A stretch of DNA of 64,000 bases from Escherichia phage JSE, in the sequence record EU863408. One strand, written 5' to 3'. A model generated the notes under the pieces. That model saw only the letters and a list, made by a program, of their open reading frames with translations, ran no database searches and was not told where the DNA came from. Below are positions 12,692 to 64,000 of the stretch, piece after piece. The position numbers and the translations under genes were made by a program. Positions within the stretch are counted from its first letter, which is position 1; each line of letters begins with the position of its first letter.

Positions 12692-12860
12692 TGTCTTTCT
12701 CCTTTTTGCGTTTTTCTTTACCCGCTACACTAGGTCCACGATTGGTAATAGATCCGCTCGTTTCCCCTGCTGCGATCTTCTCAGGATTGCCGCCAGCATC
12801 GCCAGCGGTCATATCTTCTTTGAGTTTATTTTCTTCAACAAACTGTTTAAAACCAATCAT
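12684..12860 (-). CDS. small Gly/Lys-rich hydrophilic ORF (58 aa)
   Basis: hand-translated; ATGA coupling to upstream ORF. Confidence 0.35.
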   Translation of the reverse strand: MIGFKQFVEENKLKEDMTAGDAGGNPEKIAAGETSGSITNRGPSVAGKEKRKKEKDNG

Positions 12861-13947: not shown

Positions 13948-15360
13948 TTAGAAAGTCATGTTATTTGCTAGCTCGTCGAGTTTTTCTCGTTTCTCGGCTT
14001 GCTGTGCGCTTTGTGGTTTAACTTGTGCATTCTCCTGATCTGCGATCTGGTTTGGTACTTCATACCAACGCTGATTGCCTTTCTTCACACCAACGTTAAA
14101 CCGTGAATAATAGTTCTTGTCACCGTAACGAGACTTGATCTGCTTCATGAGTTGGACGCCCATTTTAGCCAGGTCTTCGGTTTCGATAACACCCAACATA
14201 AAGTCGGCAGTAGCCGGAAGACCTGCTGATTCAGCGGTATCACTCATGTTAAGGTCGGAAGCATCCCAACCCGCGCGGGTAGTCTGTGCCGCAGTCCAAC
14301 CAACAACATCCCACTTAACAAAAAATCCTCGCAGTTCTTCCGCAATCGCCTTAACTAGTGTGTAACTATTTTCAGAGTATACACGCAAGCGAGACGATGC
14401 GCAAATCCCCAGATAGTCAACAATCACAACATCAGGTTTAAACTGTTTCTTGAGTCGCAATTCATTCATTAACGCCTCAAAGTGATTGGAGTTCGCGCCA
14501 CCAGTAGGATACTGCTTGATCATCAATTTTCCAACCGGACGATCTCCGATCTTCTTATTCTTAACACGCTTCATGCGTGCGGAATATTCCGCAAAAGAAA
14601 CATTACCATTATCCAATTCATCTAATGTAATGTCAAGCAAGTTTGCGTCGATACGTTTGGCTACGACATGCTCTGCCATCTCCATTGAGATATACAATAC
14701 ATCATAACCACATTCCATATAATCCGCAGCAAGAGAACACAAGCCAAGCGATTTACCAACGTTTACACCAGCAAGCAACACATTTAGCGTTTTTCTTTCC
14801 GCCCCTCCTTTCGTGATTTTATTCAACATCGGCAGCTTAAACGGGATCTTATTCGCCTTAGTCTGATATAGCAAGAATCGTTTTTCAAAGTCATTAAACC
14901 AGTCATGACCTACATCAGAATCAAACGTAATGGATAGTGCTTCCTGCATGATCTCAGGAATAGCACCCTCACTAGGCAATTTCTTATTCTGTTTCTCTTT
15001 TGGTAGTTGTGCGTTCGCCTGAATCTCTAGCGCCCGTGACATTGCATTATACATGGCACGGTCACGAATAAATTTTTCGGTTTCCTTCATTAACCAATCA
15101 AGGTCTTCCGGTGTATTCTCAAGCGAATCAAGAAGAGTTTTAGCCCCTTCATATGTTGTCTGATTGCCTCTCTCCTTGTCTAAAGCAATCTGTAATGCAG
15201 TTGGTGTAGGAATATTGGAATATTCGTCTACGTGCTTTTTAATCAGCTTATAAATCAGTTTTTCTTCGTCTTCGGTGAAGTAGTCCGCTTTAAGGTGAGG
15301 CCATACATTCGTAAAGAATGCGCCATTGTAAATCAACTGTGAAAAGATAGTTTTAATCAT
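13948..15360 (-). CDS. 41: replicative DNA helicase (DnaB-like)
   Basis: 470 aa; Walker A GVNVGKS; RecA-like core; adjacent to primase. Confidence 0.9.
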   Translation of the reverse strand: MIKTIFSQLIYNGAFFTNVWPHLKADYFTEDEEKLIYKLIKKHVDEYSNIPTPTALQIALDKERGNQTTYEGAKTLLDSLENTPEDLDWLMKETEKFIRDRAMYNAMSRALEIQANAQLPKEKQNKKLPSEGAIPEIMQEALSITFDSDVGHDWFNDFEKRFLLYQTKANKIPFKLPMLNKITKGGAERKTLNVLLAGVNVGKSLGLCSLAADYMECGYDVLYISMEMAEHVVAKRIDANLLDITLDELDNGNVSFAEYSARMKRVKNKKIGDRPVGKLMIKQYPTGGANSNHFEALMNELRLKKQFKPDVVIVDYLGICASSRLRVYSENSYTLVKAIAEELRGFFVKWDVVGWTAAQTTRAGWDASDLNMSDTAESAGLPATADFMLGVIETEDLAKMGVQLMKQIKSRYGDKNYYSRFNVGVKKGNQRWYEVPNQIADQENAQVKPQSAQQAEKREKLDELANNMTF

Positions 15361-50491: not shown

Positions 50492-51088
50492 TTATTTGGT
50501 AGTACCGTCAATAAAATGTTTACGACACACAGAAACATATTTATCCTCTGCACCAACTTCTATTTGAGCACCATCGCGAATAACATTACCCTCTTTATCT
50601 ACACGAAGGACCATTGTTGCTTTCTTGCCACAATGACAAATACCCTTCATTTCGACCAGTTTATCAGCAAATGCCATTAATGCCGCAGATCCTTCAAATA
50701 GATTGCCCTGAAAGTCAGTGCGAAGGCCATAGCACAGTACAGGGATATTAGCATCATCAACAAGCGCACACAAGCCTAAAACATGCTCTTTAGTCATAAA
50801 TTGGGCTTCATCTACAAATACAGCATCAGGACGCCAGCGATCCGGTCTACGCTTACCTAACGATTCACGATAAACCAAATCGAAAAGATCATCCGATTTA
50901 GTGAAGGTGATCGCTGGGGCACTTAGGCCAATTCGGGAAACGACTTCACTTTCTGAATCTCGATTATCAATCGCTGGCTTAAGAATTAATACTCGCATAT
51001 CACGTTCTGTATAGTTATAAGCACTTTGTAACAGAGAAGTTGATTTGCCAGCGTTCATAGATGCATAGTAGAAATATAATTGCGCCAT
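50492..51088 (-). CDS. tk: thymidine kinase
   Basis: 198 aa; P-loop YYASMNAGKSTSLLQ; C-terminal zinc motif CHCGKKA...CRKH. Confidence 0.9.
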   Translation of the reverse strand: MAQLYFYYASMNAGKSTSLLQSAYNYTERDMRVLILKPAIDNRDSESEVVSRIGLSAPAITFTKSDDLFDLVYRESLGKRRPDRWRPDAVFVDEAQFMTKEHVLGLCALVDDANIPVLCYGLRTDFQGNLFEGSAALMAFADKLVEMKGICHCGKKATMVLRVDKEGNVIRDGAQIEVGAEDKYVSVCRKHFIDGTTK

Positions 51089-51381
51089 TAATTAATCTCC
51101 AAAAATCCAACAAGACCTAAACCGATATAAGTCCAGATACCAATAAAAAAGATGTTAATGCTCATGGCAAGGATAAACCCTTTCAGCGTTTTGGGATACC
51201 CGACCCAATATTCCCGACCATCTTCTAACCGGATCAGTTTATTGCCTTGAGAGTCCATATCAACTACAACATGTTTATTTCGAGATTGCAATAGATATTG
51301 TTTTACAATCTCTACACCCGCCATAATAACAATAACGAAAATAAAAGTCCACACAACAAGATTAATGATAGTCTCAAGCAT
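51088..51381 (-). CDS. small membrane protein
   Basis: 97 aa; two hydrophobic segments; ATGA-coupled to tk. Confidence 0.5.
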   Translation of the reverse strand: MLETIINLVVWTFIFVIVIMAGVEIVKQYLLQSRNKHVVVDMDSQGNKLIRLEDGREYWVGYPKTLKGFILAMSINIFFIGIWTYIGLGLVGFLEIN

Positions 51382-56959: not shown

Positions 56960-57535
56960 TTATTTTGGATCTGGGAAATTCAATAGAGCATATTCTCCAT
57001 AAAATTTCCTAGCTGCATTATCATAAGCGATTGCAGCTTCGATTTCTGTGTCATATTGTCCAAGAACATGTCTTTGTAGGTTGACCATTATACTAGCTCT
57101 CCATTTCTTACGCAAATCCTTCCTGTTACACTTACTAACACCCTTATACACACTAGAAAACTTTTTAGACTTCTTCTTTCTATTATGTTGATTTTGCGCG
57201 TCGGTTGCCTCCCTAAGATTTGGAGGATTGTTATTAGCAGGATTACCGTCAATATGATCAATTAATCTAACTTGCGTCCCATGTTCTAGAAACCAAACAA
57301 CCCTATGCACGAATAGATGAACTCTAGGAAGACCGTCATCTCTACTATGCCAAAATCTAAGATGACCATCTTTATTTGTTCTGACTTTAACTAAATCGCC
57401 GTGTTTATATCTACTCCCTAATGGTCGTCCTTTGATAGCTTTACTATCGACTCTATAATATAAGATACCCTCTATATGAGCATATCTAAGTTTTATCTCG
57501 TTTTGTAGGGATTCATCCCAATATTTAAAAGCCAT
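56960..57535 (-). CDS. free-standing HNH homing endonuclease with AP2-type domain (paralog of 3019-3582)
   Basis: 191 aa; HRVVWFLEHGTQVRLIDHIDGNPANNNPPNLREAT; also similar to 3019-3582 at nucleotide level. Confidence 0.8.
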   Translation of the reverse strand: MAFKYWDESLQNEIKLRYAHIEGILYYRVDSKAIKGRPLGSRYKHGDLVKVRTNKDGHLRFWHSRDDGLPRVHLFVHRVVWFLEHGTQVRLIDHIDGNPANNNPPNLREATDAQNQHNRKKKSKKFSSVYKGVSKCNRKDLRKKWRASIMVNLQRHVLGQYDTEIEAAIAYDNAARKFYGEYALLNFPDPK

Positions 57536-57580
57536 TTTATAATCCTCACAAAGCCAGCGATTAAGCTGGCTTTATTTTAG

Positions 57581-57970
57581 TTATACCGGGTCTGGATATA
57601 CCTTTTTATCGAGTTCCATATGCGGTCCGTCTTTAAAAGTAACCCAATCAACACCGCAGATAACAGGAACACCCAATTCTCGACCAGCTTGTTTAAATGC
57701 ATCAGCGATCATACGGTAGTATTTCATGTTCCATGTATCCTTATCTTTCGGATACGCTACAACGTCAACCGCGAAACCGTGAAGATGACGAGATTTCATA
57801 GTCTTAGATTTACCTTCCGCAACATATTTCTTTTGCGTTTCTAGACTACGTACACCTTCCGTAATACCAAAATCGACCGGAGTCAGTTCTAACGCACGAT
57901 GAACGACTTTTACCAGGTCTGGATGCACACCAACAAGCCGATCTTTGCTTCTTTGAGATAATTTAAACAT
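57581..57970 (-). CDS. peptidase M15-type cell-wall hydrolase (L-Ala-D-Glu / D-Ala-D-Ala peptidase fold)
   Basis: 129 aa; SRHLHGFAVDV zinc-binding signature. Confidence 0.65.
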   Translation of the reverse strand: MFKLSQRSKDRLVGVHPDLVKVVHRALELTPVDFGITEGVRSLETQKKYVAEGKSKTMKSRHLHGFAVDVVAYPKDKDTWNMKYYRMIADAFKQAGRELGVPVICGVDWVTFKDGPHMELDKKVYPDPV

Positions 57971-57998
57971 TATTCACCCCCTTTGTGAGTGATAATAT

Positions 57999-58190
57999 TT
58001 AGATCCCGGCGATCCTGCATAGAGTTCTTGTATTAGCACCAATAAGGATAGCATTAACGACAACCATTCCCCAATCAACCCACTGATTATTATAAATGCT
58101 AAATCCGTTTGCTAGGCCAAATACAAGCATTCCGGTACACATACTCAGAGCAATAATCAACATCACGGTAAAACCAAATGCAAATCTCAT
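57999..58190 (-). CDS. small membrane protein
   Basis: 63 aa, two hydrophobic helices. Confidence 0.4.
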   Translation of the reverse strand: MRFAFGFTVMLIIALSMCTGMLVFGLANGFSIYNNQWVDWGMVVVNAILIGANTRTLCRIAGI

Positions 58191-58191
58191 A

Positions 58192-58458
58192 TTATTTTCC
58201 TTTTCTCTGTTTACGTTTATAAAAGTAATACATTACCTCATCGCGTCCGGTGATCCAACATGCTAGGGCGGTAAACAGGTTTACAATTCCCAACACACCT
58301 ACTGACGCGGCGCTGTCAACAGACATAGGAACAGTAAAGGCCATAGCTAACATAGCAACGCCACAAATGACATTAAGCACCATTATAATAAGACCGAAGA
58401 AAACCATTGTCAATCCTCCGACACAAGAAAACCAACAATCACGCCAGTGATAAGACAT
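58192..58458 (-). CDS. small membrane protein
   Basis: 88 aa, multiple hydrophobic segments, basic C-terminus. Confidence 0.45.
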   Translation of the reverse strand: MSYHWRDCWFSCVGGLTMVFFGLIIMVLNVICGVAMLAMAFTVPMSVDSAASVGVLGIVNLFTALACWITGRDEVMYYFYKRKQRKGK

Positions 58459-58601
58459 GATGCGCCGCTAATCAGACAACCCGCACCAAGTGATTCCCAC
58501 CAGATCAGAGAAGCGACAATAACACAGAATCCCCATACTACCGCAATCACAACATAGGCAAGGGTCGCCCAAAACATATATTTGTTCATAATAAATCCCA
58601 T
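58410..58601 (-). CDS. small membrane protein
   Basis: 63 aa, hydrophobic. Confidence 0.4.
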   Translation of the reverse strand: MGFIMNKYMFWATLAYVVIAVVWGFCVIVASLIWWESLGAGCLISGASCLITGVIVGFLVSED

Positions 58602-58774
58602 TCACCAAACAAATAAGAAAAAAGCCATATCAACAGAAACGAGGCAATTGATCCGGCAAGCAAAATGATATTAGAGAATCCGCCGTCTATCCAGGCGACA
58701 AAACAGAATACGCCAGTATAGAAGCATAAACCAATTACAAAGCATACTATAAGCAACCATAGATAAAACGCCAT
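58586..58774 (-). CDS. small membrane protein
   Basis: 62 aa, hydrophobic. Confidence 0.4.
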   Translation of the reverse strand: MAFYLWLLIVCFVIGLCFYTGVFCFVAWIDGGFSNIILLAGSIASFLLIWLFSYLFGEWDLL

Positions 58775-58996
58775 AGAAAGCCCTCCATCGAGATAAATTA
58801 GTGCGGGTAGTACATTACCCTACCCGCATTGTTAATCATCGCAGAGCGTGTTCTAGAACGATTCCACACCAACCGCTAACCACACCCAAACACACAGCAA
58901 CAAGCAGATTCATTCGGTCTTTTGGAATCATCGCAAACAGAACAACACCCACACAGAAAGCCATTACCATTGAAGTTAACATTTGTTCAACCATTA

Positions 58997-59335
58997 TCAC
59001 ACCTTTAAAGTCATAGACGCATAAACATTAATGTCAGGCCAGTTAGGTTCGCAATTATACTCAACATCCCACAAATAAAGCGGTTTAGATGTATCAGCCA
59101 AGTTTTTAAAATCTTCTACCCACATTTCAAGGCTATATGATGGATAAACTAGGCTATCATATCCGCCGTAACGTTGGCCTACTGGTCGGTCAGTAAAAAC
59201 TACCTCAAGATCCGGTAATTCTTTTTCAAGGATAACCGCCAGCGCATAAATCAGACGGTCTTCCTTGTTACGCTGCCGAAGGACCGTTGTCAGTGGGTTT
59301 TTCTGGTTCACTAGCAAGCACCTCCACATTTTCAC
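58997..59335 (-). CDS. hypothetical protein
   Basis: 112-aa track ORF; start uncertain (overlaps upstream ORF). Confidence 0.4.
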   Translation of the reverse strand: MKMWRCLLVNQKNPLTTVLRQRNKEDRLIYALAVILEKELPDLEVVFTDRPVGQRYGGYDSLVYPSYSLEMWVEDFKNLADTSKPLYLWDVEYNCEPNWPDINVYASMTLKV

Positions 59336-59588
59336 AGAATGAAATTTTCACAGACACAATTTTACCATAAGTGAAGAATGAATATACATTATCGAGATAT
59401 TCAACGTCACCTACAATCACATCAAACTGCGGATCAGCAACCGCCGCAACATATTCTACCAGTTCATCAAGAGAATGCAACTTAATTTCATCAATTCGGC
59501 TGTATTTGGTTGCATCTTTGATTTTAAAACCACGTTCTTTCAGCTTATCAATTAGAATTTCACGCGGAGTTTCAAACAGTTTGCTCAT
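59268..59588 (-). CDS. hypothetical protein
   Basis: 106 aa; GAGGATTATATT-ATG. Confidence 0.45.
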   Translation of the reverse strand: MSKLFETPREILIDKLKERGFKIKDATKYSRIDEIKLHSLDELVEYVAAVADPQFDVIVGDVEYLDNVYSFFTYGKIVSVKISFCENVEVLASEPEKPTDNGPSAA

Positions 59589-59610
59589 AATATAATCCTC
59601 ACATAGTTAA

Positions 59611-59805
59611 TCAATGGTCAATAATCTTGCACATTATAACAGAAAGAACAAAGACCGCAACCCACATATAGATCCCAGCAATCAATGCAATTTCAATATC
59701 ACAATATCCAAGATATACAACAGGAATAAAAACAAACATACAGACCAGCGCAAAGAAACTAGCAAAGACGCTAGAAAATCCGATAGCAGTATTAGTAATA
59801 TTCAT
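59611..59805 (-). CDS. small membrane protein
   Basis: 64 aa, hydrophobic. Confidence 0.4.
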   Translation of the reverse strand: MNITNTAIGFSSVFASFFALVCMFVFIPVVYLGYCDIEIALIAGIYMWVAVFVLSVIMCKIIDH

Positions 59806-59806
59806 A

Positions 59807-59989
59807 TTAACAATCCTCGCGGCTTAAGTCAACAGCAATTGCATACAGCATAATGAATATGCTAGCCGATCCGAGAATCAATGCACCCTCACATTTTGAA
59901 ACTCGCTCATCAAAATGTAACATTATCCATCCGAGGATGTTAAAGGCGCAGACCGCGCCTATGTTCGCTAACCAATTAATCTTTTTCAT
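59807..59989 (-). CDS. small membrane protein
   Basis: 60 aa, hydrophobic. Confidence 0.4.
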   Translation of the reverse strand: MKKINWLANIGAVCAFNILGWIMLHFDERVSKCEGALILGSASIFIMLYAIAVDLSREDC

Positions 59990-59997
59990 AATATACC

Positions 59998-60324
59998 TTA
60001 GAAAGAAACAGTTTTCAAGAAATCCAGATTTTTAGTACCGAAAACAGAAAAGTAGTGTTTTCCTTTTTCGGTTTTAGAGAAAGCGATTGTCTTCTCTACA
60101 TGGTGACGGAAGCCAGACAGACGATCACCCAGGTCAAGGCGGCAAGCGTAAGTAGTGCCGTTTTCGAAAGTAACCTCGATTTGAGTTTTGTCATATTCGC
60201 TTTCATAGGCTTTTGCTGCCGCTTCCTGTGCTTTACGCTCGAAGTCTTCGAAGTGGAATACTTCGTTTGCGTTAGCGAATACAGAAGATTCAGAGAAGAT
60301 AACTTTAACAGATACTGGTTTCAT
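59998..60324 (-). CDS. hypothetical protein
   Basis: 108 aa; AGGAGTATCAAA-ATG. Confidence 0.5.
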   Translation of the reverse strand: MKPVSVKVIFSESSVFANANEVFHFEDFERKAQEAAAKAYESEYDKTQIEVTFENGTTYACRLDLGDRLSGFRHHVEKTIAFSKTEKGKHYFSVFGTKNLDFLKTVSF

Positions 60325-60366
60325 TTTGATACTCCTTAGTAGTTCGTGTTTCGTTTCGATGGGTGT

Positions 60367-60395
60367 ATTATGCTATACACCCTCTCTCGTGTCAA
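60367..60395 (-). promoter_or_regulatory. sigma70-type early promoter (PeSL-like)
   Basis: minus strand TTGACA, 17-nt spacer, CATAAT; GGGUGUAU/AUACACCC inverted repeat; CGAAACGAAACAC leader. Confidence 0.6.
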
Positions 60396-60402
60396 CAACT
60401 TT

Positions 60403-60591
60403 TTAGTCTTTTTTCATAATTTCTAGAGCAGTTTCTACAGCACCTTTCCAACCTTCCCACATAATGGACATAGTAAGGAAGTTAAAGCACCCGCAGGAAT
60501 CAACCTTTTTAGAGATAAACCATTCTACAAACGCTTCGCTCATACCATGCTCTTTAGCGGATTCGCGTAATTGTTCAATTTGGTCTTCCAT
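60403..60591 (-). CDS. hypothetical protein
   Basis: 62-aa ORF. Confidence 0.4.
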   Translation of the reverse strand: MEDQIEQLRESAKEHGMSEAFVEWFISKKVDSCGCFNFLTMSIMWEGWKGAVETALEIMKKD

Positions 60592-60613
60592 AGTATCACC
60601 TCAACACTTAACG

Positions 60614-60808
60614 TTATTCAAACTCAAACGGTCTATTCATCCTATTGTAAAAGTACATATAACAAGCATAGTTATGTTTTGGTTGTACCGTATCAGATAG
60701 ACACGCTTTTACAGCCTCGCGGTCCGATGGGTCTACACCCTCAGCTTTAAGTAATGCTAAAATCTGGTTATAGCGTACTCTTAGTTGTACTAATGGTTTA
60801 TCCCCCAT
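60614..60808 (-). CDS. hypothetical protein
   Basis: 64-aa ORF. Confidence 0.4.
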   Translation of the reverse strand: MGDKPLVQLRVRYNQILALLKAEGVDPSDREAVKACLSDTVQPKHNYACYMYFYNRMNRPFEFE

Positions 60809-60817
60809 ATTACCCCC

Positions 60818-61039
60818 TTATAGTTGATCAGCGATGTAAGCGTGACAAGCGCGGAGTTTCATTAATGCACTACCTTTCACTTCGCCTACGATGTTCATAA
60901 CTTCTAAGCGGTCGGATGGATTCATCTTAGAGCACCAGATCTGGTTAGCCAATTCCAGTTTACTCATATTTGGTTCCATCTCAAACAGTTCACGCTCAAA
61001 GTCGATAATTTCTTTTGCTGCGTCTTTAAAGTTAATCAT
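60818..61039 (-). CDS. hypothetical protein
   Basis: 73 aa; GGAGAATCAAA-ATG. Confidence 0.45.
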   Translation of the reverse strand: MINFKDAAKEIIDFERELFEMEPNMSKLELANQIWCSKMNPSDRLEVMNIVGEVKGSALMKLRACHAYIADQL

Positions 61040-61068
61040 TTTGATTCTCCCGTTTCGTTGATGGTTGT

Positions 61069-61097
61069 ATTGTAGGGGAGTTATCCTCCCCTGTCAA
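61069..61097 (-). promoter_or_regulatory. sigma70-type early promoter (PeSL)
   Basis: minus strand TTGACA, 17-nt spacer GGGGAG-GAUAA-CUCCCC, TACAAT. Confidence 0.6.
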
Positions 61098-61105
61098 CAC
61101 TTTTA

Positions 61106-61291
61106 TCAGAAATATGCAATATAGTTTGCCAGTCCGACAGAGTCATCATTCGGCATTGCTTTTACTGCCAGTTCAAACCCTGCTTCAACTTTCTGTTTAG
61201 CGGATTCTTCGTTATAACCCCAGATTACCAGAATAGCTACTACGTTTTCTTTGCTTACTGCTTTCAGTGCTTTAGTGATGCGACGTGCCAT
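61106..61291 (-). CDS. hypothetical protein
   Basis: 61 aa; GGAGAATCAAATT-ATG. Confidence 0.45.
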   Translation of the reverse strand: MARRITKALKAVSKENVVAILVIWGYNEESAKQKVEAGFELAVKAMPNDDSVGLANYIAYF

Positions 61292-61337
61292 AATTTGATT
61301 CTCCGTTTAAGAAAGTGTGTTTCGTTTCGATGGGTGT

Positions 61338-61366
61338 ATTATGCTATAGGCCGGATCTGGTGTCAA
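61338..61366 (-). promoter_or_regulatory. sigma70-type early promoter
   Basis: minus strand TTGACA, 17-nt spacer, CATAAT; conserved leader. Confidence 0.6.
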
Positions 61367-61397
61367 CAACTTTTTTTAAAAAAAATTTTTAGGCAAT

Positions 61398-61424
61398 AAA
61401 AAAGCCACTCCGAAGAGTGGCTTA
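61398..61424 (-). terminator. intrinsic terminator
   Basis: minus RNA GCCACUC-UUCG-GAGUGGC then UUUUUUAUU. Confidence 0.6.
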
Positions 61425-61570
61425 TAGGGAAGGTAGCGAATCTTCCTTGTCTCCAACCTGCTAGCGGCCTAGCAAGTGAATGCTTTAGCGTACCGGATCG
61501 CCCATACGCTGCAATAAATGCGGCTAGGTGACGTCCAAATCATTCTAACCGCGCTGTCTTTAGTTCACTA

Positions 61571-61789
61571 TTATTTATATCGCTTTCTCTCGCGACGTTT
61601 TTGATCTTCTTCCTTGATAGAGTTAAATGCATCAAAAAGACACATGACACTAATAATAAACATAACCGTATTTTCTACGATATCCCACGGCTTCGCATCA
61701 GTACAGATCCCCCAAACGGTAAGAAATGCAAATAGTGCAGAAGAGATCACAAGCATGATACTTGCTAAGATATAAAAAGTCATTTTCAT
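61571..61789 (-). CDS. small membrane protein
   Basis: 72 aa; two TM helices, basic tail. Confidence 0.45.
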   Translation of the reverse strand: MKMTFYILASIMLVISSALFAFLTVWGICTDAKPWDIVENTVMFIISVMCLFDAFNSIKEEDQKRRERKRYK

Positions 61790-61980
61790 GGTTTTACCTC
61801 AATTCTTCGATATTCATCACACATCCACGCAGTAAGCAAGAATCCTAACACATAAGCAACAAAATACGTTAATGCTTCTTCTGGTTCTGTGCTGTGTATC
61901 ATCATTAAACCAGCTAGAACGGTCTTAACAATTACATTTAAAATAATTAGCCACGCAAATAATTTCATCGTTTGCCCCAT
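61786..61980 (-). CDS. small membrane protein
   Basis: 64 aa, hydrophobic; ATGA-coupled. Confidence 0.4.
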   Translation of the reverse strand: MGQTMKLFAWLIILNVIVKTVLAGLMMIHSTEPEEALTYFVAYVLGFLLTAWMCDEYRRIEVKP

Positions 61981-62204
61981 TTCGGTCGAGTCTTTTCAAA
62001 CTTATACATTCCGTAACAATCTCGAATCATCCACGTAACAAGAGCACCAGTCAACACAGACAATACACAGAAGAAGTAAAACGGTCCAGTTGCATTATCA
62101 ACATGAGCAAGCCATGTAAAGAAAACACATGCTAAGAATGTAAAGAACATCATAAAACACAAGAAAGCAAAATATTTTATGCTACTCATAGCGCCACCAT
62201 ACAA
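61965..62204 (-). CDS. small membrane protein
   Basis: 79 aa, hydrophobic. Confidence 0.4.
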   Translation of the reverse strand: MYGGAMSSIKYFAFLCFMMFFTFLACVFFTWLAHVDNATGPFYFFCVLSVLTGALVTWMIRDCYGMYKFEKTRPKWGKR

Positions 62205-62292
62205 CAGATCATAAGAAAACCCAACGCAATAAGAATTGCATCAAATTTAGTGAACTCAGGTCCACCTATCAACATCATTCGTTCCTGTTCAT

Positions 62293-62490
62293 TCATAGAT
62301 CACAGAGCCATCTTACAGCACCACATAAAGCGATCAAAAGACTAGGTATAAACGAGATTACAACAAGTTTACAAAAATCATCTAAGGTAACACCGGAATA
62401 GCTACCTACTGTAACAACACCGATCATCAGACACAGAAAGAAAACAAATGCAATCAGAAACAAAGTATTGCTAAACAGTTTAGTGATCAT
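62293..62490 (-). CDS. small membrane protein
   Basis: 65 aa, hydrophobic. Confidence 0.4.
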   Translation of the reverse strand: MITKLFSNTLFLIAFVFFLCLMIGVVTVGSYSGVTLDDFCKLVVISFIPSLLIALCGAVRWLCDL

Positions 62491-62684
62491 TAGACACCCC
62501 CACGACGATCAATTTCAAAAACTTTTTTACCATCAACGAAGCATGTCACAACTGCCTCGTTGACTTCCGCAAATTGTTGTGTCACCCACTTAAGGTCAGA
62601 GCGAAACAATGTTCTATTAATAACAAATGTTTTACCGCTCTTATCCTTACCCATAAATTTTGCTTTAACCATATCCAATTCCAT
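62490..62684 (-). CDS. hypothetical protein
   Basis: 64-aa ORF. Confidence 0.4.
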   Translation of the reverse strand: MELDMVKAKFMGKDKSGKTFVINRTLFRSDLKWVTQQFAEVNEAVVTCFVDGKKVFEIDRRGGV

Positions 62685-62694
62685 ATTATCACCT

Positions 62695-62853
62695 TATTTG
62701 CTAATCGCTAAACCCAATCCGAAGAGAGCACCCGATGCTACAGTATACCCGAAAGTTTCAAATGCAGTAAAGATATCTAAGCCACCAGCTAACAGAGTTG
62801 CAGTAAACAGAGTACCAGCTACGAACATAAAAGTTTTACCGATAAATTTCATT
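62695..62853 (-). CDS. small membrane protein (52 aa)
   Basis: hand-translated MKFIGKTFMFVAGTLFTATLLAGG...; AGGAGAATCAAA-ATG; promoter directly upstream. Confidence 0.5.
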
Positions 62854-62884
62854 TTGATTCTCCTTTCGTTTGTTTGTGGGGGTA

Positions 62885-62913
62885 TCTTACTACCCCCGTT
62901 TCATGTTGTCAAC
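62885..62913 (-). promoter_or_regulatory. sigma70-type early promoter (PeSL)
   Basis: minus strand TTGACA, 17-nt spacer with GGGGGUA/UACCCCC stem, TAAGAT. Confidence 0.55.
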
Positions 62914-62918
62914 TGTTT

Positions 62919-63293
62919 TTAAGAAAATTTTACTTCGTCTACAATGTCTTTCATGACATTGATTTCCATTCCGGTCAGAACACGTTGGAACATGTGCTGC
63001 ACATACGCTTTCAGGTATTCATTTGATGGCTTGCTATCGAAAGTCTTTTTAGTGTAGTAGTCATCACCGAAAGCTACTGTAATTACATTTTCGTCGTCGT
63101 TCCAAGCGATATAAGCAAATTTGCCGTTATCCCAGAAGCGAGCACTAATTGCTACTTTTGTTGAATCGAATCCTACTTCGCTGTGAGATTCAAGAACTAC
63201 TTGCGTACCAGTTTCTTTATGAATGTAGTAGCGGGATACTAAGTCAAAGTTACGGGTGTAGTGACATTCGAATTTATCTTTAAACATCATCAT
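62919..63293 (-). CDS. hypothetical protein
   Basis: track ORF 62919-63362 (alt start inside promoter); start MMMFKDKFECHY at 63291-63293 after AGGAGAATCAAA. Confidence 0.5.
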   Translation of the reverse strand: MMMFKDKFECHYTRNFDLVSRYYIHKETGTQVVLESHSEVGFDSTKVAISARFWDNGKFAYIAWNDDENVITVAFGDDYYTKKTFDSKPSNEYLKAYVQHMFQRVLTGMEINVMKDIVDEVKFS

Positions 63294-63330
63294 TTTGATT
63301 CTCCTAAGTGTGTTTCGTTTCGATATGTGC

Positions 63331-63359
63331 ATTATGCTATAGTCGTTTATGGTTGTCAA
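63331..63359 (-). promoter_or_regulatory. sigma70-type early promoter
   Basis: minus strand TTGACA, 17-nt spacer, CATAAT; conserved leader. Confidence 0.6.
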
Positions 63360-63364
63360 CACCT

Positions 63365-63396
63365 AAAAACAAAAAACCCCGAAAAATTTTCGGGGT
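63365..63396 (-). terminator. intrinsic terminator after 2H phosphoesterase gene
   Basis: minus RNA ACCCCGAAAA-UUUUUCGGGGU then UUUUUUGUUUUU. Confidence 0.65.
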
Positions 63397-63402
63397 ATAA
63401 AA

Positions 63403-63867
63403 TTACAGTTTGGTCGTCCACTCCAGGTCTAGATCTTCGACATACTCATGAGATCGGACAATCTCTAAATCGAACTCTAGGTCAGTGCCAAATTTACGCG
63501 CACCAACATCATAAGAAAGCGTGATATGCGGTACATATTCAGGATAATCCCACGTCGCGCCTAAAGCAGTGCCGATATCGTGTCTGAATTGCATGTAGTC
63601 GCTTTCAAATGCCAACACAAGCGCATTAGTACCGGATTGAGTTTCAAACACTTTCAGATGGCATAGAGAGCCTAAAAACTTTTCACCCTCTTCTGGGATA
63701 AACGGAACATAGACACGAGAATATAAGATAGTGCTATGCAGTTTATCACGAGGAACGGCATTAGGCAGATCGTAGAACTCCTGCAATTTTTCAATGCGGT
63801 CTAGTGTATCCTCAGTGAATTTAACAGCCGCATATGTACCTTTAACGGATTCTCGAAACGGGGTCAT
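63403..63867 (-). CDS. 2H phosphoesterase (LigT/Acb1-like); candidate anti-CBASS cyclic-nucleotide phosphodiesterase
   Basis: track ORF 63403-63873 (TTG); ATG at 63865-63867 with SD GGAGG; two H-x-T/S motifs (H44-S-T, H114-I-T); position corresponds to T4 57B. Confidence 0.6.
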   Translation of the reverse strand: MTPFRESVKGTYAAVKFTEDTLDRIEKLQEFYDLPNAVPRDKLHSTILYSRVYVPFIPEEGEKFLGSLCHLKVFETQSGTNALVLAFESDYMQFRHDIGTALGATWDYPEYVPHITLSYDVGARKFGTDLEFDLEIVRSHEYVEDLDLEWTTKL

Positions 63868-63869
63868 AA

Positions 63870-64000
63870 TCAAGCCTCCGTGATCAGTTCTACTTCCTCT
63901 TCTGCGTCTTCCGCTGCTTCGTCTTTAGGGAGAAGTGCTTTCACTTCTTCGACAATAGCATCAAGGGAAACAGTCCCGTTTTCGTCTGGCTGAATACCCA
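63870..64000 (-). CDS. hypothetical protein, 5' end outside window (C-terminal 43 codons visible)
   Basis: open frame to window edge ending ...EDAEEEVELITEA; stop 2 nt before downstream ATG. Confidence 0.4.
   Translation of the reverse strand, partial: GIQPDENGTVSLDAIVEEVKALLPKDEAAEDAEEEVELITEA

Follow-up and report, generated by a model that had tools for sequence, protein, structure and literature searches.

Thirteen very small predicted membrane proteins are clustered between vs.8 and 57B(acb1) in the RB49-like coliphage JSE

We analysed a 64,000-nucleotide stretch of Escherichia phage JSE (sequence record EU863408; the whole stretch is called the window here) for a cluster of very small membrane-protein genes. 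The variable interval between vs.8 and 57B(acb1) is coded throughout on the minus strand, and 13 small open reading frames (ORFs) with predicted transmembrane (TM) segments are packed into positions 57999-62852. They are named by letter from gA to gT (Table 1), the letters not used among the 13 being soluble neighbors; start codons were adjusted to the RB49, phiS and GEC-3S annotations. The original prediction had counted about 12 such ORFs of 50-90 aa. Twelve are indeed present in its four ranges, but a thirteenth (gP) had been overlooked, and the actual sizes are 36-74 aa. A megablast search of 57500-63400 against 50,697 GenBank phage records gave 59 matches, all to RB49-like coliphages at 94-98% identity. 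By its sequence the source phage is a pseudo-T-even phage of the genus Krischvirus (RB49-like, T4-type coliphage, Straboviridae), and not a T-even phage as had been assumed. The counterpart slot in T4 holds denV, ipII, ipIII, e, nudE, e.2-e.8, rnaC/D, tRNA genes, segB, trna.2-.4, and ipI. No tRNAs or above-threshold RNA families were detected in the JSE region by ARAGORN and Rfam.

To estimate membrane character, hydropathy was scored in Kyte-Doolittle windows of 19 residues (≥1.6), and also in 17-residue windows at 1.5 and in Hessa-scale windows. The 19-residue windows gave two segments in 10 of the 13 proteins and one segment in gA, gC, and gT; gA gained a second segment at the 17-residue setting. 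With both scales taken together, most proteins had two segments, and gC and gT had one. The published TMHMM predictions for the RB49 orthologs list two helices in ORF103, 104, 106, 107, 110, 111, 112, 118, 119, 120, 122, and 124, and one in ORF121 (Nolan 2006, Additional file 2); the two helices of the gT ortholog are at residues 5-27 and 37-54. The two methods agree with the originally proposed one or two hydrophobic helices per protein. AlphaFold2 applied to the gS alignment gave a helix at 2-25, a turn, and a helix at 30-69, with a mean pLDDT of 77. In a Foldseek search against BFVD, this model matched the Phi1 ortholog only, and the remaining matches were at E>0.4 (structural matches to a generic helical hairpin were considered uninformative).

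The proteins show basic N-termini and acidic central loops of about 6-18 residues, with strongly basic C-terminal tails in gD, gF, and gS. Judged by the positive-inside rule alone, this charge pattern suggests inner-membrane hairpins with N-in/C-in topology and very little protein outside the bilayer; the proteins for which this topology is predicted individually are gA, gD, gE, gF, gL, and gS. None of the 13 has an extramembrane domain beyond about 20 residues, and none classes as a spanin. The obvious candidate cysteines of gT, gP, and gB showed no lipobox (L-[ASTVI]-[GAS]-C), as judged by eye and not by a systematic scan.

The clustering of these genes is highly significant. Thirteen of the 16 small TM ORFs of the window lie inside 4.9 kb (binomial P about 1e-12). 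Similarly, the published TMHMM table of RB49 lists 20 distinct ORF names with predicted TM helices, and 13 of these fall within 3% of that genome (P about 1e-15). The plus-strand AT skew is +0.20 at 58-60 kb vs. about -0.07 elsewhere, i.e., the coding strand is T-rich, which is expected of codons with U at the second position.

Very short hydrophobic frames of low-complexity composition and without homologs could be non-functional, having arisen by chance in T-rich DNA or being remnants in decay that linkage alone maintains, and the gene callers used for several GenBank records skip some of them. We compared the ORFs in 12 GenBank relatives and in four metagenomic contigs from a lineage that is more divergent (16 in total). 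In the 12 GenBank relatives all compared ORFs were intact apart from three: Whisky gQ carries a frameshift, Phi1 gC begins with ATA, and SSG23 gD stops one codon earlier. For gM the comparison covered four of these relatives only, because RB49-type genomes have ORF110/111 at that place. Gene order was unchanged in all 16 relatives, the four metagenomic contigs included. When the concatenated proteins were searched by tblastn (50,697 phage records), both sets of genes were recovered from 57 Krischvirus genomes: gA-gF were complete (six pieces each) in 57 of 57, and the set of gP-gT plus gL/gM reached at least 80% query coverage in 44.

The ratio of nonsynonymous to synonymous change (pN/pS), taken for each gene from its most divergent pair, was 0.16-0.49 (Fisher p<0.01) for 12 of the 13 genes. 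Values of 0.16-0.18 were obtained for gD, gE, and gT (gT 0.16, p=5e-5), whereas the diverged gA allele, with a pN/pS of 0.76 (p=0.36), was not significantly below 1 and would also fit a non-functional frame. A Shine-Dalgarno sequence (SD; ≥4 nt, spaced by 3-12 nt) precedes 11 of the 13 starts (AAGGA for gT) vs. 10% of background ATGs; gC and gE are the two without one, and both begin within ATGA overlaps. The originally noted "many" ATGA overlaps proved to be several: five junctions are of this kind (gB/gC, gC/gD, gD/gE, gE/gF, and gQ/gR), one is TAATG (dmd/gB), and four others have 1-2 nt spacers. Translation would be coupled via these overlaps and short spacers.

Intact frames in nearly all relatives, excess synonymous change in 12 of 13 genes, the SD enrichment, the conservation of ATGA coupling, and the clustering (P about 1e-12 to 1e-15) make the non-functional explanation very improbable. 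These sequence comparisons show that the 13 ORFs are real protein-coding genes under purifying selection; lack of conservation in any relative, named beforehand as evidence against them, is not what the relatives examined display.

The genes themselves are already known. They are orthologs of RB49 ORF103-107, 110-112, 118-122, and 124 (NC_005066), which were annotated and deposited in 2003. TM predictions for the RB49 orthologs were tabulated in 2006 (Nolan 2006), the promoter cassettes of the region type were described in 2010 and 2014 (Arbiol 2010; Comeau 2014), and the GenBank record of phage W115 labels 11 of these genes "putative membrane protein." The finding confirms existing annotation rather than being a new discovery. 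The present analysis adds the coding-status test, the proposed operons, statistics on the clustering, the comparison showing faster evolution than in soluble neighbors, and the exclusion of known families. The genes are conserved throughout the genus, members of which are widely isolated for therapeutic use.

Table 1. Features of the vs.8-57B(acb1) interval of phage JSE (positions in the window; ".", no strand assigned)
Feature	Position	Strand	Description
Palindromic terminator-type hairpin	57550-57573	.	Downstream of lys; scored on +; no minus-strand T-run; possible end of second operon
lys, endolysin, M15 L-alanyl-D-glutamate peptidase	57581-57970	-	Soluble, without signal sequence; last gene of second operon
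gT, 63 aa	57999-58190	-	One strong and one weaker helix; RB49 ORF103 ortholog; directly upstream of endolysin gene
gS, 71 aa	58192-58407	-	2 TM helices and basic C-terminal tail KRKQRKGK; RB49 ORF104 ortholog
gR, 59 aa	58410-58589	-	2 TM helices; RB49 ORF105 ortholog; ATGA overlap with gQ
gQ, 62 aa	58586-58774	-	2 TM helices; zero basic residues; RB49 ORF106 ortholog
Degenerate PeSL-like element	58803-58835	-	TTAACA, stem-loop GCGGGTAG/CTACCCGC, TACTAC; between gP and gQ; read from sequence
gP, 52 aa	58836-58994	-	2 TM helices; RB49 ORF107 ortholog; between the ranges of the original prediction
gM, 64 aa	59611-59805	-	2 TM helices; 34%-identical allele of RB49 ORF110
gL, 60 aa	59807-59989	-	2 TM helices; RB49 ORF112 ortholog
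PeSL cassette before gK	60325-60405	-	TTGACA-17-CATAAT; would drive gK through gT-(lys)
Intrinsic terminator (61423-61402) and PeSL	61292-61430	-	End of gA..gF operon
gF, 72 aa	61571-61789	-	2 TM helices and basic tail; RB49 ORF118 ortholog
gE, 60 aa	61786-61968	-	2 TM helices; RB49 ORF119 ortholog; ATGA-coupled
gD, 74 aa	61965-62189	-	2 TM helices and basic tail; RB49 ORF120 ortholog; strongest conservation of the set
gC, 36 aa	62186-62296	-	Single C-terminal TM helix; RB49 ORF121 ortholog; ATGA at both ends
gB, 65 aa	62293-62490	-	2 TM helices; RB49 ORF122 ortholog; start overlaps dmd stop (TAATG)
dmd, antitoxin against RnlA/LsoA	62490-62684	-	T4 Dmd phmmer E=2e-16; PF17587 in relatives; soluble
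gA, 52 aa	62694-62852	-	Glycine-rich, hydrophobic; RB49 ORF124 ortholog; first gene after PeSL
PeSL cassette before gA	62853-62921	-	TTGACA-17-TAAGAT; G5/C5 stem-loop over -10 box; would drive gA-dmd-gB..gF

Five related cassettes were found at 63397-63294, 62921-62853, 61430-61292, 61111-61040, and 60405-60325. They share a layout of AT-rich sequence, GTTGACA, 17 bp, (C/T)AnAAT, CATCGAAACGAAACAC, and GGAGAATCAAA-ATG, with stem-loops that sit between or over both promoter boxes. All five have the architecture of the PeSL class (AT-rich upstream sequence, sigma-70 boxes, stem-loop, SD, and ATG; Arbiol 2010), for which strong promoter and terminator activity was shown by experiment in RB49 and phi1 (Arbiol 2010, PMC2839356). 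The locus resembles the PeSL ORFan modules of T4-type hyperplastic regions (Arbiol 2010; Comeau 2014) in phage group and region type, and also in a cargo of database orphans whose content and alleles vary between close relatives. It departs from the published cargo pattern in that gA alone is directly behind a cassette, the other 12 genes being deeper in operons. The cassettes, which had been thought to separate the small ORFs, thus lie between operons or clusters and not between individual genes. Both papers cover cassettes and gene shuffling, not the membrane character of the cargo, and the text of Arbiol 2010 does not refer to transmembrane proteins.

Two operons can be proposed from this arrangement. 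The first would consist of a PeSL, gA, dmd, gB, gC, gD, gE, gF, and the terminator at 61423-61402. The second would consist of a PeSL, gK (LPD25 domain), gL, gM, gN, gO, gP, the degenerate stem-loop, gQ, gR, gS, gT, lys, and the hairpin at 57573-57550. Host sigma-70 RNA polymerase would be expected to transcribe both from their PeSLs immediately after infection. The dmd gene, which shares the putative first operon with gA-gF, is an immediate-early antitoxin gene in T4.

The 279-nt gap between gF and gG (61292-61580, minus strand) contains an exact late-promoter motif, TATAAATA, at 61579-61572, one of three in the 64 kb. The 178-nt sequence after it folds strongly (minimum free energy, MFE, -63.9 kcal/mol, z -4.0) and ends at the intrinsic terminator 61423-61402. 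Rfam gave no match for it, and T4 rnaC and rnaD are not similar to it. This sequence, 94-98% conserved in the 16 relatives even beside a 67% gF allele, is a candidate late small RNA.

Each of the 13 proteins matched only its own small genus-specific PHROG, with function unassigned. Pfam, NCBIfam, and PADLOC defence-protein models gave nothing above threshold, and tblastn of the 50,697 phage records detected no homologs beyond Krischvirus even at E≤1. When gS, gD, and gF were used in word-seeded searches of 5.8 billion protein clusters, all relatives recovered were at least 80% identical, and a full HMMER profile search of 1.84 billion representatives with gS found its own cluster only. The lack of assignable homologs, already suspected from the sequence, held in all of these searches. 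No paralogy was detected by all-vs-all phmmer and blastp, the sole match being gM vs. RB49 ORF110 (34%); the genes therefore do not form a tandemly duplicated family. We also compared the 13 proteins with T4 Imm, Sp, 61.1, 61.2, 61.4, e.2-e.4, and trna.4, and found no similarity. The best phmmer result for T4 Imm was E 0.19 (2.9 bits), with no PF14373 or other Pfam match at E≤0.1, and T4 Sp against the membrane ORFs gave E 0.87 or worse.

The 12 genes with a direct RB49 ortholog (all but gM) show about 84-100% nucleotide identity to it, with order and sizes the same. In RB49-type genomes the gM slot (L001 3491-3885) contains ORF110, which is 34% identical to gM with the same length and topology, and an extra two-helix ORF, ORF111, which JSE lacks. 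The flanks of this exchange are about 97% identical and there is no PeSL at the junctions. The exchange is clearly a modular replacement within the operon. Two allele classes of gP exist, with about 84% and 99-100% nucleotide identity; JSE has the rarer class, as do phiS and JK32.

The membrane proteins are 67-90% identical to those of the metagenomic lineage (gF 67, gA 71-82, gB 72-78, gP 79, gS 80, and gR 83%), whereas the soluble proteins are mostly 92-100% identical (g124, gG, gH, gK, gN, gO, and lys; gI 88-94%). Two soluble proteins, gJ(55.3) and dmd, have diverged too, to 69 and 82%, respectively. Pooled dN was 0.091 for membrane vs. 0.031 for soluble genes (about 3x) at similar dS (0.36 vs. 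0.29), and pooled omega was 0.25 for the membrane genes vs. 0.11 for their soluble neighbors. TM1 and the loop of gS vary, in contrast to its nearly invariant TM2 and cytoplasmic tail GRDEVMYYFYKRKQRKGK.

Shigella phage JK32 (L007 1460-1990) has a 266-bp tandem duplication of 58659-58924, which yields an additional gQ-like ORF, a chimera that continues into gP sequence. The duplication could be genuine or an assembly artefact.

The gene on the other flank, 57B (annotated "RNA ligase"; 63403-63873, L013 2333-2797), matches Pfam Acb1 (PF23474), an anti-CBASS phosphodiesterase. Together with dmd, this means that the interval is bracketed by counter-defence genes.

We consider it somewhat more probable than not that gA-gT membrane genes encode non-essential early inner-membrane hairpin proteins for phage-host or phage-phage conflict, and that they are not holins or antiholins. 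The reasons are the early-type promoters, the putative co-transcription with dmd, the adjacent acb1, the restriction to one genus, the allelic replacement, and the faster protein evolution. The gF, gA, gS, gP, and gB alleles at 67-80% beside soluble genes at 95-100% identity are the kind of pattern seen in conflict genes. The proteins would be individually dispensable accessory factors in envelope conflict. By analogy, they may exclude the DNA of superinfecting phages as Imm does, and/or neutralize membrane-associated abortive-infection or defence effectors. The hairpins would bind host or phage inner-membrane proteins, and since they have nearly nothing outside the bilayer, they would most likely act within the membrane plane or via their short cytoplasmic tails. 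If some of them do act as in-membrane exclusion or anti-defence factors, they would represent a phage effector class invisible to sequence homology, and the locus would offer a compact, easily cloned set for screening.

A similar outline in T4 is that of Imm (83 aa, PF14373), an early and non-essential protein located in the inner membrane. Its general size, its two TM helices, and its charged tail at the C-terminus resemble gD, gF, and gS. Like Imm, 10-11 of the 13 proteins have two predicted segments and appear to be expressed from an early-type promoter. However, the Imm family is widespread (1496 phage records) while the 13 are confined to one genus. T4 Spackle (Sp), about 75 aa long, is periplasmic and has a signal peptide that is cleaved off, unlike the ORFs here, which have loops of about 6-18 residues only and no periplasmic domain. 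The original hint of exclusion or lysis timing stays an analogy only; no similarity to Imm or Sp was found, and the lysis role is disfavored (below). In the same slot, T4 e.2, e.3, e.4, and trna.4 are predicted membrane proteins, trna.4 being a 61-aa two-helix hairpin; there the four membrane genes are spread over about 9 kb and are mostly 100-130 aa, compared with 13 of 36-74 aa in 4.9 kb here.

We tentatively consider a further possibility, that the locus is a battery of fast-evolving, unrelated two-helix miniproteins, each binding a different host inner-membrane target within the bilayer. The diverged alleles (gM/ORF110, gF, gA, and gS) would then track variation of the targets among E. coli strains; examples of such targets are abortive-infection membrane effectors or sensors, or the channel for incoming phage DNA. 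If so, the battery would be the membrane-embedded counterpart of the adjacent soluble anti-defence genes dmd and acb1.

The same inferred early expression and hairpin architecture would also fit host-takeover factors that act on housekeeping membrane functions (transport, respiration, Sec/YidC, FtsH, or division) and optimize the infected cell. The bacterial small membrane proteins AcrZ, MgrB, and MgtS modulate membrane functions in this way, and the low pN/pS of gD, gE, and gT is as expected for a fixed host target. However, variable targets better fit the restriction to one genus and the diverged alleles (gM/ORF110 34%, gF 67%), and the counter-defence neighbors also speak for conflict. We regard a housekeeping role as rather unlikely, although nothing here tells it apart from the conflict explanation.

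Several points weigh against the conflict explanation. gQ lacks any basic residue, and the basic loop of gP suggests the opposite orientation. The promoters of this phage are predicted ones. No PADLOC defence model and no similarity to T4 Imm supports a defence-related function. Faster change is also expected because TM helices tolerate hydrophobic substitutions, and is not by itself an arms race. The literature searched, including Arbiol 2010, Nolan 2006, and Silas 2023, holds no expression, localization, or phenotype data for these genes. Finally, gQ-gT directly precede lys on the same strand, uninterrupted by a PeSL, and gS, gD, and gF have the outline of class II holins. gS has this outline at 71 aa and with a highly basic C-terminal tail, and its TM2 and tail are nearly invariant.

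These last points would suit a lysis-control module (holin, pinholin, or antiholin), made up of gQ-gT and perhaps others, that arrived with the M15 endolysin and gates or times its release. The endolysin is indeed non-orthologous to T4 e, which it replaces. Class II holins and pinholins such as S21 of phage 21 (71 aa) are of about the same length (~70 aa) as gS, gD, and gF, and likewise have two TM helices and a basic C-terminus on the cytoplasmic side; gS is located two genes upstream of lys. Unlike these holins, gS, gD, and gF have no evident dual-start motif and an early-type promoter context. RB49 encodes a T4-type holin t, and an rI-type antiholin (PF24205) is present in a close metagenomic relative. 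The endolysin, without a signal-arrest-release (SAR) domain or signal sequence, is of the type served by t, so a pinholin would not suffice. There was no holin family match (best gD vs. PF07332, 13.5 bits against a cutoff of 28.4; none in NCBIfam), and gS has no relatives beside endolysins in other phages.

The control of lys itself would also differ from that of gQ-gT, which have an early-type promoter ahead of them. In a hairpin at 58001-57964 (minus strand; MFE -15.9 kcal/mol, z -4.3), the SD and AUG of lys are paired with upstream sequence, and a late-promoter-like TCTAAATA with one mismatch (58003-57996) overlaps the gT stop just upstream of lys. With its ribosome site sequestered in read-through RNA, lys would be translated only from late transcripts starting inside the hairpin, in its 5' arm, which would free the ribosome site. 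This makes the membrane genes upstream look early, with transcripts that simply run on into lys. The T4 lysozyme gene e is under the same kind of translational control, which here would act on a non-orthologous M15 endolysin. A lysis role of the membrane genes is disfavored, and we judge it quite unlikely.

Other features were noted around these genes. Due to a 1-nt indel vs. most relatives, dmd of JSE is 64 aa with an altered C-terminus, as in Makalu_003 and SSG23; it is 67 aa elsewhere, and the dmd/gB junction changes from an 11-nt overlap to TAATG here. gN and gO (58997-59588, minus strand), located between membrane genes, are conserved soluble orphans (omega 0.05-0.09) with a 44-nt overlap; the gO start is a GTG behind a GGAGGTG SD within gN. 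Between vs.8 and lys, a 191-aa ORF (56960-57535, minus strand) carries the annotation HNH homing endonuclease or AP2/ERF-domain protein in related records. phiS, Whisky, and JK32 have this ORF, and RB49 lacks it. The final 39 nt of lys (57581-57620) align only with genomes that have this ORF, and look like a co-conversion tract from homing.

A T4 gp61.1 homolog at 12693-12860 (tblastn E 3e-13) and a weak Spackle-like tblastn match at 14101-14295 (27% identity over 74 aa, E 0.028) are both ~45 kb from dmd. The T4 order dmd-61.4-sp-61.2-61.1-61 is therefore broken up in JSE. Neither the window nor RB49 135-164 kb showed a homolog of T4 Imm. Outside the cluster, an orphan membrane protein of 97 aa (51088-51381, minus strand) has a TM helix at each end, with ~40 soluble residues in between; it falls in a PHROG of its own and gave no match in Pfam. 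From size and topology alone, it is probably the counterpart of RB49 ORF088c (TMHMM 4-26, 68-90).

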